Source: Patescibacteria group bacterium (GTDB taxonomy: Bacteria; Patescibacteriota; Patescibacteriia; 2-01-FULL-39-33). Taken from it: 64,000 bases of DNA. Made by a program: the position numbers and the translations under genes. The DNA is taken from NCBI GenBank assembly GCA_041649575.1, contig JBAZMW010000003.1, positions 58,102-122,101 on the forward strand, in the 5' to 3' direction. Under the pieces are notes generated by a model. It was given only the letters and a program-made list of their open reading frames with translations, ran no database searches and was not told the origin of the DNA. Each line of letters opens with the position of its first letter. Within the stretch, counting starts at the first letter, position 1. Shown here piece after piece: positions 11,287-19,887 of the stretch.

Positions 11287-11315
11287 TTGACAAAATAAAA
11301 ATTAAATTATATAAT
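11287..11315 (+). promoter_or_regulatory. perfect consensus sigma70-type promoter TTGACA-N17-TATAAT
   Basis: ttgaca (11287-11292), 17-nt spacer, tataat (11310-11315); followed by a leader hairpin caggcttcaaaaagcctg and RBS GGGGAGG before the ATG at 11404. Confidence 0.6.
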
Positions 11316-11403: not shown

Positions 11404-13008
11404 ATGCAAGCAATACTGGAAGCGATCGAAACCGGCCTAGTAAGGGGCTGTGGAATATCCCTGACCGAGGCGATGAGTTCGCCACGATTCGTAAAGCTGC
11501 TGGCGAGGCAAAAGACCCTCTTTGAGCGTTACCCTAAGGACACTCACCGAGGAATCGCCCTAAGAGCCGGACATCTGGTCATGGGCCAGTTACTCAACAC
11601 CATGCCGGAATCGAAAGCTTTAGCCCAAGCTCGACGGATCAAAACACCGAAGTTCGGCTGCGGTATTGAGCTGCGCGCGCTGATCCAATTCTTTGGCGAA
11701 GCGCTAATTGTCGAAGCTGGCAAGTGCCTGCCAGACGAAGTGCTTGAATTGGCCAAGGAGTGGAGAGCGGCCACGGCGGAGAGACAGATTGAAATAGTCC
11801 GAGAACTATTCTTCATCTTTCGGTCGAAGAAACAAGGCGATGACCAAGAGATCATGACCCTCGCTCACGCTGAGCAAGATCTTATCCGTAAGGCCATGGA
11901 AAAGTGGAATCGAGGGTCTGACGCGCGAGATGTTTTACCAAGACTCTATGGCAAGTGGGACAGTAATTGTCCGGCTAACTGTCAGGGTAAGACGCAATTG
12001 CTAGTCGCCTTCGCGCACCTCGCCGGAACCAAGGCAATGGTTGTCAACGCTCTAAGCGACGGAGTACATGAGCTGTGGCGGTTAAGGGGTGAGTTGGCCG
12101 ACGCCATCTCTCAAGACATCAGACGGCGCGGCCTAGGCGGAGTCAGCTCGGAATTTGATGACAGCCTGGCTGGTCATCATTTCGCCGAGATTTTCAGGGA
12201 AAAGATTCGGGACTTCCATGTCGGTACGGCTTTGAGGCTAGGCGACGGGCGCTGGATCCTAATCGACCCGCACGCTCTTGCCTGGGGAGTTTTCTCTCCG
12301 CGCTGGCAGATGAACGAAACTCACCGACTGCTCCGAAAATACGCTGAAGTTTTGCCCGGACTGACGTTAACCCGCGATGATGGCGGAGAGGTCACGGACA
12401 AAATCAAGGCTAGGGCCGAAGTGTCTTACGACTTGATCGAGCGGTCGCGAAAGCTCGAGATTTTGCTTCGCGAACAGGTTCACTCCATGTCAGACTTCAT
12501 CGACATCGTTAAGGACTCAGAAGATTTCGATTTGCTGATGCGCCTCAACGCCGAACATGAAAGAACGACTTTTGTCCCATGGACCGATCCGAAGATAAGG
12601 TTTCTCGGCGTCGCTTCTGTGGTAGCCGGTGGAATGGACAAGCTCCATGACTTTCGGGCCATGATAGACCCAAAGTACCTAGAGCAACAAATAAAGTTGT
12701 GGCTATCATTCTACCACTGCGTGGCGGCCAATCACTTAGCGAACCAACTGGGTGACAATGGCGAGTTGGTCCATCTGGTTTGCGAGTTCAACGCCAGCCC
12801 GGAATACTATTTGGCACTGTCGGCGACCAACAGCATCATCGTGCGAGAAGATGAAGAGTCGGAATCGTTCTTCATTGATTACGGTTTCGACCAGCTCACT
12901 CTTTATAACACGATGATCCGGCGAAAGGAAGCGGCGGTCGCGGCGGCGGAGGTCGTCAAAACTCTGCCGTTTGTGCATGAGAATATGCGCACCAGATTTG
13001 GAATCTAA
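11404..13008 (+). CDS. hypothetical protein encoded in a GC-rich island (possible transglutaminase-like Cys-His-Asp core; speculative)
   Basis: 534-aa ORF in a region of about 56% GC with a strong RBS; NCQGKTQLLVAFAHLAG, HHFAEIF and GRWILIDPH loosely resemble the C/H/D motifs of transglutaminase-like cysteine peptidases. Confidence 0.55.
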   Translation: MQAILEAIETGLVRGCGISLTEAMSSPRFVKLLARQKTLFERYPKDTHRGIALRAGHLVMGQLLNTMPESKALAQARRIKTPKFGCGIELRALIQFFGEALIVEAGKCLPDEVLELAKEWRAATAERQIEIVRELFFIFRSKKQGDDQEIMTLAHAEQDLIRKAMEKWNRGSDARDVLPRLYGKWDSNCPANCQGKTQLLVAFAHLAGTKAMVVNALSDGVHELWRLRGELADAISQDIRRRGLGGVSSEFDDSLAGHHFAEIFREKIRDFHVGTALRLGDGRWILIDPHALAWGVFSPRWQMNETHRLLRKYAEVLPGLTLTRDDGGEVTDKIKARAEVSYDLIERSRKLEILLREQVHSMSDFIDIVKDSEDFDLLMRLNAEHERTTFVPWTDPKIRFLGVASVVAGGMDKLHDFRAMIDPKYLEQQIKLWLSFYHCVAANHLANQLGDNGELVHLVCEFNASPEYYLALSATNSIIVREDEESESFFIDYGFDQLTLYNTMIRRKEAAVAAAEVVKTLPFVHENMRTRFGI

Positions 13009-13038
13009 CGGCGGAAAAACAACGAGAGACGAGAGGAG

Positions 13039-13341
13039 GTGCAGACAGATATGATAGACACAAGGAGCTTTTCGCGAGAAGCCAAGGAATTGATGCGCCT
13101 GTGCCCTGTAAGTGAACACAGCGGGGAACCCACTGGTACGGACATCTCCACGGTAATTGCCGAACACCCCGAGCTCGTTTCAGGACTCTCCCAATATGTT
13201 TCCTGGGTCCGGGAGGTGGGCATGGCCATTGCGGAAACAACGACAACTCCGGCGATTGGCCACCCGGTTGCCAAGACTGTCCGGAAGGTACAGGCCCACG
13301 CCAGCGACGGCGACAAACCGAAATCCGAACCCCGCACCTAG
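13039..13341 (+). CDS. hypothetical small protein (100 aa), second gene of the GC-rich island
   Basis: RBS GAGGAGG 8 nt upstream of the ATG; same strand and composition as the upstream gene; a terminator follows. Confidence 0.35.
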   Translation: MQTDMIDTRSFSREAKELMRLCPVSEHSGEPTGTDISTVIAEHPELVSGLSQYVSWVREVGMAIAETTTTPAIGHPVAKTVRKVQAHASDGDKPKSEPRT

Positions 13342-13363
13342 TTGCGGGCGTACACAACACACA

Positions 13364-13406
13364 AAGCCCTGTCCGGCAGTAATGGACAGGGCTTCTTAAT
13401 TTTTAG
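13364..13406 (+). terminator. rho-independent terminator (aagccctgtcc ... ggacagggctt + T-run)
   Basis: 11-bp perfect stem with 10-nt loop followed by cttaattttta. Confidence 0.65.
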
Positions 13407-16603: not shown

Positions 16604-17623
16604 TTAAAAAACCCGTTCTAACTTATATAGCCAATAATAATTTAATAATCTCTCACGCACCTTATGACCATTGCCGTGGCTTAACAGCCCTAAATATGAT
16701 TGCAAAGTCGCGTTAGTCGGACTAATCTTAATTCTATTTATGGACTTTCTCTTGGTGGTATTCCGCAATACCCGATGGTCAGTAAAATGAACCCAACCAA
16801 GATAATCAACTCCCGAGGCCATTGTTCTTATGGATATTTTATTGGGATGAAGAGTGAGCTTTAATTCCTTAGACAAAAATTGACCTATTTCTGGTAATAT
16901 TTTTTCTAGATACTCTTTGTCGTCATTGAGAACCATAAAATCATCGGCATAGCGCAAGTAATATTTCACTTTTAATTTATGTTTTACCCATTGATCAAAA
17001 TCATTCATGTAGACATTGGCCAGTAGTTGCGAAGTGAGATTGCCAAGTGGCAGCCCGATATCCTGGCCGTAAATCTTACTATCATAACTCTCAATTACCT
17101 CGTCGAGCAGACTCATAATATCTCGGTCGGGAATATAGCGGGATAAGCTATCCATAAGGATTTTATGATCGATACTGTCAAAAAATTTCCTGATGTCACA
17201 TTTCAAAACCCAGCAGGTGCGAGAGTGATTTTTGCTTGTTTTGTAGGCCAAAGCACGGAATCTGTTCATCGCTTTATGCATTCCCTTATCATTGCGGCAA
17301 GAGAAAGAATCGGCGATAAAAGTCCTGTCAAAAAAGGGATAAAGAATTCGATAGATAGTATGATGAATCAAGCGGTCGCGGACGCTGGCTTTGTGGATAT
17401 GCCGACGCTTAGGATCGGTTATATAGAAATCAACATAGCCGCCATGACAGTATGTTCGATTGGCCAAATCCTCGTTTAATGATAAAATATTGTCGAGCAG
17501 GTTACGAGAAAATATTTGGACGTCCAGCTTCATTTTTTTGCCAACGATAAATTCTCGCCACGCGGAAAATAAATTTTCTAAATCAATAATCGAATTATAG
17601 TTATGGCTCAGTTGGATTTTCAT
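16604..17623 (-). CDS. DGR-type reverse transcriptase
   Basis: RT motifs including YADD (RYADDFMVL) and the DGR-specific GLPLGNLTSQLLANVY ([IV]GxxxSQ); N-terminal LENLFSAW. The start is chosen at the internal ATG (MKIQLSH...) downstream of the G10 tract; the track ORF extends to 17683. Confidence 0.85.
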   Translation of the reverse strand: MKIQLSHNYNSIIDLENLFSAWREFIVGKKMKLDVQIFSRNLLDNILSLNEDLANRTYCHGGYVDFYITDPKRRHIHKASVRDRLIHHTIYRILYPFFDRTFIADSFSCRNDKGMHKAMNRFRALAYKTSKNHSRTCWVLKCDIRKFFDSIDHKILMDSLSRYIPDRDIMSLLDEVIESYDSKIYGQDIGLPLGNLTSQLLANVYMNDFDQWVKHKLKVKYYLRYADDFMVLNDDKEYLEKILPEIGQFLSKELKLTLHPNKISIRTMASGVDYLGWVHFTDHRVLRNTTKRKSINRIKISPTNATLQSYLGLLSHGNGHKVRERLLNYYWLYKLERVF

Positions 17624-17639
17624 AATAATTCCTTTAAGT

Positions 17640-17649
17640 CCCCCCCCCC
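17640..17649. repeat. homopolymeric C10/G10 tract in the RT 5-prime region / avd-RT divergent intergenic region
   Basis: 10 consecutive C on the plus strand; lies about 17-26 nt upstream of the proposed RT start codon. Confidence 0.9.
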
Positions 17650-17674
17650 AACGGGTTTTGATAATTTTCCAATT

Positions 17675-17995
17675 TTGACGCAATTAAAGGAAGGGTATAA
17701 ATTGTGGCACGGCTTCTTAAATCGCCTGCCTCGCACTACGCGCTATACTCTGGGGACAAAAATCGATAATATCTTTACGGATTTAATTGCCACCGCCTTA
17801 ACCGCCAAGTTTGCCAGACAAGATGAAAAAATTATCAGGCTAAAACAAATCAGCGAGGGTCTTGATCATCTCAAATACTTTCTGACGATACTGTGGGAAA
17901 TAAAAGGGATAGACAGTGGCAAACTCTCCGCTTTGGGCAGTCGTCTGGCTGCCGTCGGAAAAATGGTCGGCGGATTACTCAAGTCAATTTCATAA
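17675..17995 (+). CDS. Avd-like accessory variability determinant (four-helix-bundle / 23S-IVS protein family)
   Basis: LPRTTRYTLGTKIDN and LGSRLAAVGKMVGGLLKSI match the FPKEEKYxLGxQIRR ... LxxLIKSL pattern of the four-helix-bundle family used as DGR Avd. The start is uncertain: TTG at 17675 or 17702 (the track ORF starts at 17603 and would overlap RT). The gene is on the strand opposite to RT, TR and target. Confidence 0.55.
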   Translation: MTQLKEGYKLWHGFLNRLPRTTRYTLGTKIDNIFTDLIATALTAKFARQDEKIIRLKQISEGLDHLKYFLTILWEIKGIDSGKLSALGSRLAAVGKMVGGLLKSIS

Positions 17996-18040
17996 AAAGG
18001 AAAAGAAGGTCTCAAAAACCTTCTTTTCCTTTTTATTTTC
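17996..18040. terminator. perfect 15-bp stem hairpin (aaaggaaaagaaggt / accttcttttccttt, 7-nt loop) + T-run
   Basis: starts 1 nt after the avd stop codon and lies 16 nt 3-prime of the TR on the other strand. Confidence 0.7.
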
Positions 18041-18047
18041 ACATCAT

Positions 18048-18155
18048 CAGGAGCACGAAGCCGATATTGTCGTTGCCATTCTCGTCCCAGTTGTTGCAGT
18101 TGAGCCCGTTGTCGTCGAAGTTGCCAGCAATGAGACGATTGCCGTCGTTCAAGGT
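18048..18155 (-). repeat. DGR template repeat (TR), 108 bp
   Basis: aligns to 18606-18713 with 21 mismatches; 20 of them are adenines on the minus (sense) strand of this copy. Read in the VR frame it encodes TLNDGNRLIAGNFDDNGLNCNNWDENGNDNIGFVL with 10 AAC/AAT codons. Confidence 0.85.
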
Positions 18156-18158
18156 CAA

Positions 18159-18557
18159 TCAATAGTTGTGAATATTGTCTTCCAAAACACCGCCCATTGA
18201 GTTCTCTCTGGGCTGAACCGTATTTGGGGTCATGAGCCCACCAACAATAAACACGGGGTGTGAAAAATGTCCTTGGGATAATTTCCTTGCTCTGGCGCGA
18301 TCCTTAGACAACGCCATTCGGAAGAATAAATTACCTTGTTCTGCGGGCTGGCGTCCGTGGAGACCAGCTAAGTTTAACTTCGCAGTAATGGTAATTATAT
18401 CACAATCGAAAATTTTTATGAAGATAGATATCTGCATTAGCTCCTCGGCTCGAAAATTTAAAAGATTACTTTTACATTTCTCTCGCTCTACGTCGCTTAT
18501 AAAAAAGAGAGGCCTCGGTGCGATGACCAAGGTCTCAAGTGTCCAAGTGTCCAACAA
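18159..18557 (-). CDS. hypothetical ORF between VR and TR (coding status doubtful)
   Basis: 132-aa ORF at the position where avd usually sits, but no four-helix-bundle-like sequence; may be non-coding TR-upstream sequence. Confidence 0.2.
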   Translation of the reverse strand: MLDTWTLETLVIAPRPLFFISDVEREKCKSNLLNFRAEELMQISIFIKIFDCDIITITAKLNLAGLHGRQPAEQGNLFFRMALSKDRARARKLSQGHFSHPVFIVGGLMTPNTVQPRENSMGGVLEDNIHNY

Positions 18558-18581
18558 TCCGAGGCGAGAGCGCCAAGGATC

Positions 18582-19310
18582 CTACTTACCGAGCTTCTCC
18601 ACCCCCAGGAGCACGAAGCCGATCATGCCGTCGCCACCCTCGCCCCAGTCGCGGCAGCGGAGCCCGACGCCGCCGAAGCCGCCAGCAATGAGACGACTGC
18701 CGTCGCGCAAGGTGTCAGACGCCATGTAGAGACGATTCAGCGGTACACGTTCGCCCGTACGCTTGAAATGCGCGAGGATAAGAGCGAACTGAAGCTGAAT
18801 CGAGCCGAATGTTGTGGCGTGATTACCGGGCAATTCGTAGCGCTGTTTGAGTTCGGCGCGGTGCTTTTCCATCGCTTTGATGTTCTTACCCGTGCTGTTT
18901 TCTGCCAGGCGAGGAATCCAGAACACCAAGCAATCGTCGGTGGGGTTGTCGTTGAAATTCCAGCTCTGGAGGTAGCCGAGATTCTCGTAGCAAGGACCGA
19001 CAATCGGGGCGTGCTTCTTCAACGTGAAGCCCTGCTTGATAAGCCATACAACAGGCCCCGTGTAGCCCATCAGAGCCGCCAGTTTACGCCAGGGGGCGAG
19101 ACGGTCTGTGAACTGTGGGAACTGCTCCAGCATCTTACTATCGGATAAGGGAATGGCGAAAGTATTCGCGATTTCTTCTTGCACGAGTGCGGCGAGGAAC
19201 TCTTTCACCTTTCCTGGCTTATCGGCAAAAACCGACATCTCTTCATCGCTGAGGCCATTAAGTGTGGCCAATACCGATACTGCACTTGCCTTACGGTCTG
19301 TCGTCTTCAT
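18582..19310 (-). CDS. DGR target (variable) protein, C-terminal VR; likely C-type-lectin / FGE-like fold
   Basis: 242 aa, about 58% GC; VR occupies the last about 43 codons before the stop (...GFVLLGVEKLGK*); the TR carries AAC codons at the variable sites. Confidence 0.8.
   Translation of the reverse strand: MKTTDRKASAVSVLATLNGLSDEEMSVFADKPGKVKEFLAALVQEEIANTFAIPLSDSKMLEQFPQFTDRLAPWRKLAALMGYTGPVVWLIKQGFTLKKHAPIVGPCYENLGYLQSWNFNDNPTDDCLVFWIPRLAENSTGKNIKAMEKHRAELKQRYELPGNHATTFGSIQLQFALILAHFKRTGERVPLNRLYMASDTLRDGSRLIAGGFGGVGLRCRDWGEGGDGMIGFVLLGVEKLGK
18606..18713 (-). repeat. DGR variable repeat (VR), 108 bp, at the 3-prime end of the target gene
   Basis: TR homolog in which TR adenines are replaced by G/C/T; encodes TLRDGSRLIAGGFGGVGLRCRDWGEGGDGMIGFVLL; followed by GC-rich GGGGTGGAGAAGCTCGG (IMH-like). 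Confidence 0.85.
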
Positions 19311-19541: not shown

Positions 19542-19567
19542 TCAAATAACTATCCTTAATAAATATT

Positions 19568-19649
19568 TGGGCCGGGAGGGATTCGAACCCCCGAAGGCAA
19601 AGCCAAGAGATTTACAGTCTCCCCCATTTGACCGCTTTGGTACCGACCC
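19568..19649 (-). tRNA. tRNA-Tyr (anticodon GTA), class II with long variable arm
   Basis: manual fold: acceptor GGGTCGG/CCGGCCC (one G-U), anticodon stem GGAGA/TCTCT with loop CTGTAAA, long variable arm TGGCTTTGCCTTC, T arm GGGGGTTCGAATCCCTC. Confidence 0.75.
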
Positions 19650-19668
19650 ATACTAACTGTTATACTTG

Positions 19669-19741
19669 AGCCGTTGATCGGATTTGAACCGATGACCTAC
19701 TCCTTACCATGGAGTTGCTCTACCAACTGAGCTACAACGGC
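19669..19741 (-). tRNA. tRNA-Thr (anticodon GGT)
   Basis: manual fold: acceptor GCCGTTG/CAACGGC, D arm TAGCTCAGTTGGTAGAGC, anticodon stem ACTCC/GGAGT with loop ATGGTAA, T arm ATCGGTTCAAATCCGAT. Confidence 0.8.
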
Positions 19742-19770
19742 ATATAGATTGTTTTGATTAATTACAGCTT

Positions 19771-19841
19771 ACAATCAGACTGGATCCAACTGAGCTATCC
19801 GCCTCGGCTCGCCTTGCTCGCCAAGGCGAGACGGGCAACGG
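19771..19841 (-). pseudogene. decayed tRNA paralog (tRNA-Thr-like acceptor GCCGTTG + 38-nt GC hairpin insertion + D arm TAGCTCAGTTGG, no T arm)
   Basis: the 5-prime acceptor and D arm are identical to the adjacent tRNA-Thr(GGT); the anticodon and T arm are not recognisable; flanked by 26-bp direct repeats (19735-19762 / 19836-19862). Confidence 0.35.
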
Positions 19842-19887
19842 CTTATAGATTGTTTTTGATTTAAGTTTTTTTATTCTAACAAATAAT

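Follow-up and report, generated by a model that had tools for sequence, protein, structure and literature searches.

Within a 64,000-nt stretch of a Patescibacteria group bacterium contig (JBAZMW010000003.1; "the window" denotes this whole stretch throughout), we analyzed a diversity-generating retroelement (DGR) and the RNA features that surround its template repeat (TR). The cassette comprises a target gene that ends in a variable repeat (VR), the TR, a reverse transcriptase (RT) gene and, on the opposite strand between TR and RT, an avd gene (Table 1). Comparing the two repeats, we found 21 mismatches over 108 nt, of which 20 lie at TR adenines, and every one of these 20 affects codon position 1 or 2. 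The last bases that the two repeats share are CTCCTG; beyond them come GGGGGTGGAG on the VR side and ATGATGTGA on the TR side, which resemble a GC-rich initiation of mutagenic homing (IMH) element and a differing, IMH*-like counterpart. The RT matches Pfam RVT_1 (1.2e-27); its best NCBIfam match is a sub-threshold group II RT model, in a profile set that holds no DGR-specific RT model. It is the adenine bias between TR and VR, an RT motif of the [LIV]GxxxSQ type and the IMH/IMH*-like pair that together identify the element as a DGR. For the target protein, no Pfam, NCBIfam or PDB sequence match was found, and a search for a second VR within the 64-kb window found none. The GC content of the target gene is 56% (69% at third codon positions), that of the RT 38%, that of avd 43% and that of the whole window 42%.

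The plus-strand open reading frame (ORF) between TR and RT scored 46.7 bits against Pfam bAvd (PF22296), above the gathering score of 40, and 55 bits against NCBIfam DivGenRetAVD (NF033474), below the equivalog cutoff of 80; PDB profile and sequence searches with Avd gave nothing useful. An earlier reading of this DNA from its letters and ORFs (hereafter the sequence-only reading) had taken this ORF to be Avd-like, and the only such ORF in the cassette, and had placed target, TR and RT all on the minus strand. The Pfam match supports the first claim, and the repeats, the RT profile match and the ORFs bear out the second. The other ORF that had been named as a possible Avd, 18159-18557 on the minus strand, matches nothing in Pfam or NCBIfam when both strands are searched, and we rejected it as a hidden avd or accessory gene. 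It is most simply regarded as spurious because it overlies a conserved promoter-like sequence, a terminator-like sequence and a covarying structured RNA, all described below. A plus-strand ORF at 18232-18729 was likewise discarded as a gene, with no Pfam or NCBIfam match. The RT is on the minus strand as had been stated, with its start codon, an ATG, at 17623 and not at 17626.

Using Avd homologues as the entry point, we fetched 103 related loci from GTDB genomes and JGI/ENA metagenomes, which makes 104 with the window. A minus-strand RT abuts the start of a plus-strand avd in 88 of the 104 loci, and a minus-sense TR directly follows avd in 73; the other contigs were mostly too short to reach the VR. 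The canonical gene order was found in one distant locus of the 104 (22% identity); all other fetched loci with sufficient sequence have the window's arrangement. In the accessible text of Wu et al. (NAR 2018, PMC5758913), Architecture B3 is written TR-(avd)-RT, the parentheses standing for the reverse strand, and makes up 90% of the DGRs of the candidate phyla radiation (CPR). The window cassette has exactly this TR-(avd)-RT core with avd on the reverse strand, and it is an ordinary CPR-type (Architecture B3) DGR. The sequence-only reading had called the layout atypical: its placement of avd, on the opposite strand between TR and RT, is correct, and the word "atypical" does not survive comparison with Architecture B3 and with the 88 and 73 loci built alike. 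Because the layout is already catalogued, it adds nothing new by itself. Two close relatives (L032 and L033) have TRs 2 substitutions apart and VRs that differ at ~19 internal positions, indicating that the lineage is actively diversifying, an indication that comes from these relatives and not from the window.

Table 1. Features of the DGR cassette and its surroundings (positions within the window)
Feature	Position	Strand	Details
DGR cassette	16.6-19.3 kb	minus	complete element
RT, 339 aa	16604..17623	-	LGNLTSQ in translation; 21-nt overlap of its 5' end with the oppositely oriented 130-aa avd ORF
avd, longest ORF 130 aa	17603..17995	+	Avd profile matches; stop TAA 17993-17995
C10 tract (G10 on RT strand)	17640..17649	+	between RT start codon and conserved Avd N-terminal motif, inside the 130-aa ORF
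Palindrome, perfect 19 bp	17992..18036	both	arms 17992-18010 and 18018-18036, 7-nt loop
Closing helix, predicted 3' strand, UGUGAAAA	18036..18043	-	between TR and hairpin, IMH*-like region
TR	18048-18155	-	108 nt, from repeat comparison with VR
Structured leader	18156..18387	-	stem A region 18386->18341, stem B region 18324->18286
Leader stem C	18254-18243 with 18179-18168	-	encloses P1 (18242->18226) and P2 (18215->18190)
Closing helix, predicted 5' strand, UUUUCACA	18259..18266	-	directly 5' of stem C
Candidate DGR RNA promoter, TTCATA-17-TG-TATAAT	18394..18422	-	10/12 matches, upstream TG
Target-gene 3' region	18503..18581	-	CTTGG-like repeats, terminator-like hairpin 18532->18513, T-run; terminator scan; conserved in 24 loci
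Target gene, 242 aa	18582..19310	-	VR C-terminal, then GC-rich IMH-like GGGGGTGGAG
VR	18606-18713	-	108 nt, C-terminus of target ORF

The sequence features, conservation, covariation and strand asymmetry reported here were computed on the window and its relatives. Between the target stop and the TR lies an interval of 300-470 nt that is conserved and non-coding in all loci. In order from the target stop, it holds CTTGG-like repeats, a hairpin with a T-run, a TGnTATAAT box and a leader of ~230 nt. The box, TGnTATAAT or TGnTATACT, occupies the same alignment position in the relatives, and a DGR RNA may start near 18387. When RNAalifold was applied to 23 loci, it placed 44 pairs in the leader, and compensatory changes occur at 39 of these. 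Across these pairs, 94.2% of alignment cells are paired, compared with 32-47% when the structure is slid to other registers, and the covariation score is 0.71 as against 0.29 in shuffled alignments, with none of 500 shuffles reaching the observed value. The fold consists of two 5' stems followed by a three-way junction, whose stem C ends ~12 nt before the TR in the window. Searches of Rfam 15 with the DGR region of the window returned no family at E<=1 other than tRNAs and chance matches on the palindrome, and searches with 12 related loci returned none at E<=0.01. On the minus strand just 3' of the target stop (18520-18581), all related loci carry a small GC-rich hairpin and a series of four to six CTTGG/CTCGG/CTTGA motifs at intervals of ~8-11 nt, and the ACTTGG hexamer of these repeats is found again in the leader motif of most relatives. 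These elements may be the counterpart of the post-VR element required for efficient homing in Bordetella.

The leader is also linked to the other side of the TR. The last few TR bases and the linker that precedes the hairpin are complementary to a conserved leader motif ~95-105 nt upstream of the TR, and we refer to this pairing as the closing helix. The mean duplex energy of cognate partners is -12.4 kcal/mol, compared with -7.8 for non-cognate partners and -8.2 for shuffled leaders, and permuting the partners inside each sequence subgroup gave p<5e-5 in the one without the window and p=0.0003 in the one that contains it. The constructs used for alignment were artificial joins of the two real segments through GAAA; because RNAalifold found no consensus structure on these synthetic leader-motif/TR-flank constructs, the helix was evaluated by a stated structure and by the partner permutation. 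With the stated structure, in 34 loci of the other subgroup, 79% of cells are paired, as against 40-51% in slid registers, 10 of the 13 pairs show compensatory changes, and none of 500 shuffles matches the observed values. Examples of compensatory versions are UUCUUUUCGCAC:GGUGCGAGAAGAA in L007 and AUGAAAAUACUCGG:GCGAGUCUUUUCAU in L026, and the version in L020 reaches 19 bp. The segment between TR and hairpin, which the sequence-only reading called a spacer, does not lie free: it supplies one side of a covarying long-range helix whose other side is in the leader. In two relatives, L020 and L024, just 6-7 nt separate the TR from the avd stop, and part of the closing-helix strand coincides with the 3' end of avd. 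A further pairing seen by eye, between GGGCGGTGG upstream of the TR and CCAGCCGCC, which is antisense to the Avd GGW codons, was dropped for want of covariation.

Beyond the closing helix lies a perfect palindrome, whose left arm takes in the avd stop codon. As RNA, it folds at -23.8 kcal/mol on the plus strand (z -9.4) and at -26.1 kcal/mol on the minus strand (z -8.8), none of 200 shuffles being as stable, and the minimum-energy fold of the minus strand extends to 21 pairs, leaving a loop of 3 nt. Beyond the stem, each strand runs into a T-run (TTTTTATTTT on plus, UUUUUAU on minus), and the sequence fits the pattern of an intrinsic terminator, a stable stem-loop with a U-run, in both directions. 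A gap of 11 nt separates the 19-bp stem from the boundary of TR/VR homology, or of 15 nt if the 15-bp core is taken. The earlier description was of a perfect 15-bp hairpin beside the avd stop, with a T-run and 16 nt from the TR; the perfect pairing, the place against the stop, the T-run and the close position 3' of the TR were all recovered, and the corrections concern the arms, which are 19 nt and not 15, and the distance, which measures 11 or 15 nt as given above. Its placement of the hairpin in the TR transcript is supported as well. Since the arm sequence occurs a single time in the window, we rejected the idea that the hairpin is a dispersed or repetitive extragenic palindromic (REP)-like repeat.

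To characterize this hairpin in relatives, we used 56 non-redundant loci and a core-stem definition; a hairpin could be delineated in 53 of them and is convincing in ~45. It is kept in position in ~45 of the 56 with unrelated stem sequences, such as GGAAAAGAAGG in the window and CTCCCTCG/CGGGGGAG, CTCTTTCCG/CGGAAAGAG or GAAGGCC/GGCCTTC elsewhere, and in many relatives it is a stem of 9-10 bp with a U·G pair and a 4-5-nt loop. The first 55 nt 3' of the TR have a median folding z of -3.3, with z < -2 in 38 of the 56 loci. When the stems of 22 loci of the other subgroup (window excluded) were put in a sequence-anchored alignment, 86.5% of cells were paired, compared with 40-69% in slid registers, and 8 of 9 pairs showed compensatory changes. 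The two strands are not equivalent. Hairpin stability favors the TR strand in 41 loci and the avd strand in 6, with no difference in another 6 (Wilcoxon p=7.6e-6), and the stems contain 54 G·U pairs on the TR strand against 9 on the avd strand, a count that tells the strands apart because a G·U pair becomes a C·A mismatch on the other strand. Of the 53 loci, 34 have a U-rich tail, defined as 6 or more U in the 12 nt after the stem, on the TR strand only, 11 have one on both strands (the window's subgroup, including the window), none has one on the avd strand only and 8 have no such tail, which puts a tail on the TR strand in 45 of 53. As stability, G·U pairs and U-tail all favor the TR strand, the hairpin is selected as RNA on that strand. 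Its commonest distance from the end of TR/VR homology is 9 nt (17 of 53 loci), and the avd stop lies before, inside or after the stem. These comparisons lend support to the suggestion of the sequence-only reading that the hairpin belongs to the TR RNA and may mark its 3' end, and the hairpin looks like the intrinsic-terminator-like end of a TR transcript.

Past the hairpin, the conserved structure appears to stop. In the same 23 loci that yielded 44 leader pairs, RNAalifold found 0 conserved pairs in the 160 nt that follow the hairpin, which are antisense to avd, and this region shows no sign of a Bordetella-type structured domain of ~100 nt beyond the first stem-loop. Because the TR RNA, as modeled, ends at the hairpin, the RT would need a promoter of its own; a promoter-like site, TTTATA-18-TAAAAT, lies antisense within the 5' end of avd in 16 of 47 loci.

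From these observations, we conclude with moderate confidence that the cassette produces a discrete DGR RNA of ~400 nt, with an accessory domain 5' of the TR and a hairpin at its end. The TR would sit in a minus-strand non-coding RNA of its own (roughly 18387 to 17986) and would not be co-transcribed with avd and RT as in Bordetella phage. Synthesis would start from the TGnTATAAT promoter; the ~230-nt leader would fold into stems A and B and then into the three-way junction of stem C, P1 and P2, and the TR would follow. The 8-nt segment just past the TR would then pair back to the leader strand directly 5' of stem C and leave the junction and the TR in the loop between the two, and the 19-bp hairpin with its U-run would end the RNA. 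The hairpin would keep transcription of the TR from entering avd in antisense, and it could terminate the convergent avd mRNA too, because a T-run is present on the plus strand in the window. By analogy of position with the Avd-binding stem-loop of Bordetella, it may double as a handle for Avd. Because avd fills the space 3' of the TR, an RNA domain like the Bordetella spacer (Sp) appears to be supplied from the 5' side.

Several points weigh against this model of a discrete, hairpin-terminated RNA. The transcript start, 3' end, termination, protein binding and priming mechanism in it are all inferred from sequence only. About 10 of the 56 relatives have no post-TR hairpin (L020, L024, L073 and L075, also L011, L028, L058, L074, L076 and L079), so that the hairpin is not indispensable. 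A consensus terminator scan of the window did not list the hairpin, probably because its maximal stem absorbs the T-run, and the stem is A/U-rich, with 5 G-C pairs of 19. It also differs in detail from the Avd stem-loop of Bordetella phage BPP-1 (11 bp, a UNCG tetraloop and flipped-out bases) in being a perfect 19-bp, A/U-rich stem with a 7-nt loop; the Avd-binding stem-loop as given by Handa et al. has ~9-11 bp with flipped-out bases under a tetraloop cap and touches the Avd pentamer. The window's closing helix has only 8 bp and is missing from the single-sequence minimum-energy fold, so the support for it in the window is comparative. Finally, the window's candidate for an RT promoter, TTTATA-18-CAAAAT (17701->17672), is weaker than that of the relatives, which leaves room for read-through from TR to RT.

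The palindrome could instead be a mere bidirectional intrinsic terminator that serves the convergent avd and TR units and has no role in the DGR reaction. Such a function would suit the T-runs that lie on both sides of the stem in the window and in 10 close relatives, the presence of other hairpin-plus-T terminators in the window, the ~10 of 56 relatives that have no hairpin and the unconserved sequence of the stem. We nevertheless regard this explanation as unlikely, since a terminator acting equally in both directions does not fit U-tails confined to the TR strand in 34 of 53 loci and to the avd strand in 0, nor a spacing between TR and hairpin that is most often 9 nt (17 of 53) while the position of the avd stop varies. 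A covarying closing helix that directly abuts the hairpin, and a position that matches the Avd-binding stem-loop of the Bordetella RNA, also speak for a role in the DGR RNA.

In a different explanation, Avd would bind the hairpin as a stem-loop within a long Bordetella-like RNA that reads through antisense avd, where the Sp with its priming site would lie, into the RT. A stem-loop after the TR and a duplex between upstream and downstream sequence were predicted by Handa et al. (bioRxiv 10.1101/2023.10.23.563531) for 207 out of 278 DGRs that contain Avd, CPR being among the phyla represented, and a TR-RT co-transcript would also account for the expression of an RT that starts 21 nt inside the avd ORF and therefore has no intergenic promoter, the internal promoter candidate being above threshold in only 16 of 47 loci. 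It would, however, have to pass the U-tract that 45 of 53 loci carry beyond the hairpin on the TR strand, would be wholly antisense to the avd mRNA, and would carry 0 conserved structure over the 160 nt after the hairpin, compared with 44 leader pairs in the same loci; we judge it rather improbable, and more so than the bidirectional terminator. Most improbable, to the point that we give it very little weight, is the proposal of the sequence-only reading that the 3'-terminal hairpin self-primes cDNA synthesis by folding back from the RNA 3' end. The hairpin does lie 11-15 nt past the TR, at the 3' side from which cDNA synthesis has to start, but its 3' U-tail has no conserved complementary partner in the TR, the TR-adjacent segment pairs with the leader instead, and the hairpin is missing in some relatives. 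Moreover, the one DGR characterized in this respect primes from an internal adenosine 2'-OH within a template:primer duplex and not from the RNA 3' end.

The 5' end of avd may bear on how the cassette is controlled. We consider 17603, 17675 and 17702 to be candidate start positions. The first gives the longest ORF, which overlaps the RT head-to-head by 21 nt on opposite strands (17603-17623); the second, a TTG, is the start of a near-identical 106-aa protein in NCBI, annotated as a four-helix-bundle protein in a Patescibacteria metagenome-assembled genome; and the third, also a TTG, is preceded by the Shine-Dalgarno-like AAGGAAGG. Although the Avd N-terminus (MAQLDFH) looks conserved, it only reflects conservation of the RT N-terminus (MKIQLSH) on the other strand, where the reverse complement of the avd ATG encodes RT His7. 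Inside the longest ORF lies a C10 tract, the sole C/G run of at least 8 in the 64-kb window. A poly-C tract of C7-C14, most often 10, occurs at the same position in 54 of 73 distinct related loci, and it is in frame with an upstream start codon in only 24 of the 54 loci that bear it; the L032 Avd, which is 94% identical to that of the window, is frameshifted at the tract. Translation of Avd seems to cross the tract because there is no canonical start between it and the downstream motif, which varies in the manner of coding sequence. Phase variation, a transcriptional slippage site or an assembly error are possible explanations, and if truly phase-variable, the tract would be an on/off switch for targeted hypermutation. 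A broader proposal joins this switch to the RNA: the accessory RNA of CPR Architecture B3 DGRs, which would place template and primer on RT-Avd, would have moved from the 3' side of the TR, where the Bordetella Sp lies, to the 5' side, giving a permuted, independently transcribed RNA of ~400 nt that is closed by a helix and terminated by a hairpin, and the C7-C14 tract would gate Avd, and with it hypermutation, by frame switching through slippage. We put this combination forward tentatively, as a possibility in which we have clearly less confidence than in the discrete RNA itself.

Some features flank the cassette. Just upstream of the target gene on the minus strand are a tRNA-Tyr gene (19567-19650) and a tRNA-Thr gene (19668-19741), and the minus-strand interval 19758-19845 resembles a partial or interrupted tRNA copy. 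A 21-nt repeat made up of the 5' end of tRNA-Thr and its upstream flank is found at 19735-19755 and again, 95% identical, at 19836-19856; the partial copy might be an integration scar. At some distance, a second GC-rich island (11404-13400, 53-58%) holds a 534-aa ORF and a 100-aa ORF, with a perfect TTGACA-17-TATAAT promoter sequence before these ORFs (11287-11315) and a strong terminator after them (13364-13394).

CPR bacteria account for a large share of known DGRs. To our knowledge, the sole mechanistic model of DGR reverse transcription comes from Bordetella phage, in which RT and Avd bind to an RNA domain of 140 nt, located downstream of the template, that also positions the primer and limits how long the cDNA becomes. 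In CPR, that downstream space is occupied by avd, and the comparative data suggest how CPR DGRs may manage, with a 5' domain that covaries, a helix that closes the RNA and a hairpin at its end. A defined RNA of ~400 nt could be tested in vitro with its own RT and Avd, and it could seed a covariance model for annotating CPR TRs.

Compared with known systems, the window agrees with Architecture B3 (Wu et al. 2018, PMC5758913) in order, orientation, the single adjacent target gene and a CPR/Patescibacteria host; as far as the accessible text of that paper goes, gene order does not differ between the two, and that text is silent on hairpins and describes neither a TR-proximal stem-loop nor a leader RNA or poly-C tract. 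The DGR RNA of BPP-1 consists of the avd 3' end, the TR and the 140-nt Sp (Handa et al. 2018 NAR; bioRxiv 10.1101/2023.10.23.563531), and cDNA synthesis in Bordetella phage requires 20 nt upstream of the TR together with the 140-nt downstream Sp. Within it, Avd binds a stem-loop formed by Sp 3-33, Sp 47-56, in which the priming adenosine lies, is paired to the 3' end of the TR, Sp 59-70 pairs with an upstream segment ('cPRT Stop'), and the rest of the Sp grips bRT. The window resembles this arrangement in having, on the TR strand, a stem-loop immediately 3' of the TR, the element that Avd binds in BPP-1, which here starts 11 nt past the TR/VR homology, and in the duplex between upstream and downstream segments that would loop out the template, with structured accessory RNA around it. 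In the larger subgroup, a G opposite a G ends the TR-adjacent helix, as Sp G57:TR G117 does in BPP-1, a likeness noted by eye and unscored. Unlike BPP-1, the window has its large structured domain (~230 nt) 5' of the TR and nothing conserved after the hairpin, and its RNA apparently has its own promoter and a terminator-like end in place of membership in an avd-TR-brt transcript. The upstream partner of the closing helix also lies ~100 nt before the TR, beyond the 40 nt upstream (and 100 nt downstream) of the TR that Handa et al. covered (bioRxiv 10.1101/2023.10.23.563531).

A precedent for an independent TR transcript is found in Trichodesmium, where, in the accessible text of Pfreundt et al. 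(2014, PMC4143802), the TR is expressed from a separate promoter as an abundant discrete RNA with a main transcript of 265 nt. The transcript in the window, which is predicted from sequence alone, would be alike in this respect; the Trichodesmium DGR differs in lineage and architecture, and the same text describes no covarying leader or terminal hairpin for it. Structured RNAs beside RT genes are also represented in Rfam by RT-1 to RT-19 (Weinberg et al. 2017), at least one of which comes from a DGR, RT-10 being the TR-RT spacer of BPP-1. The window leader shares this setting beside an RT gene and, unlike them, matches no Rfam 15 family, RT-associated motifs included. Within the literature that could be searched, the organization of a 5' leader, a closing helix and a terminator-like hairpin around the TR appears to be an undescribed variant of DGR RNA.

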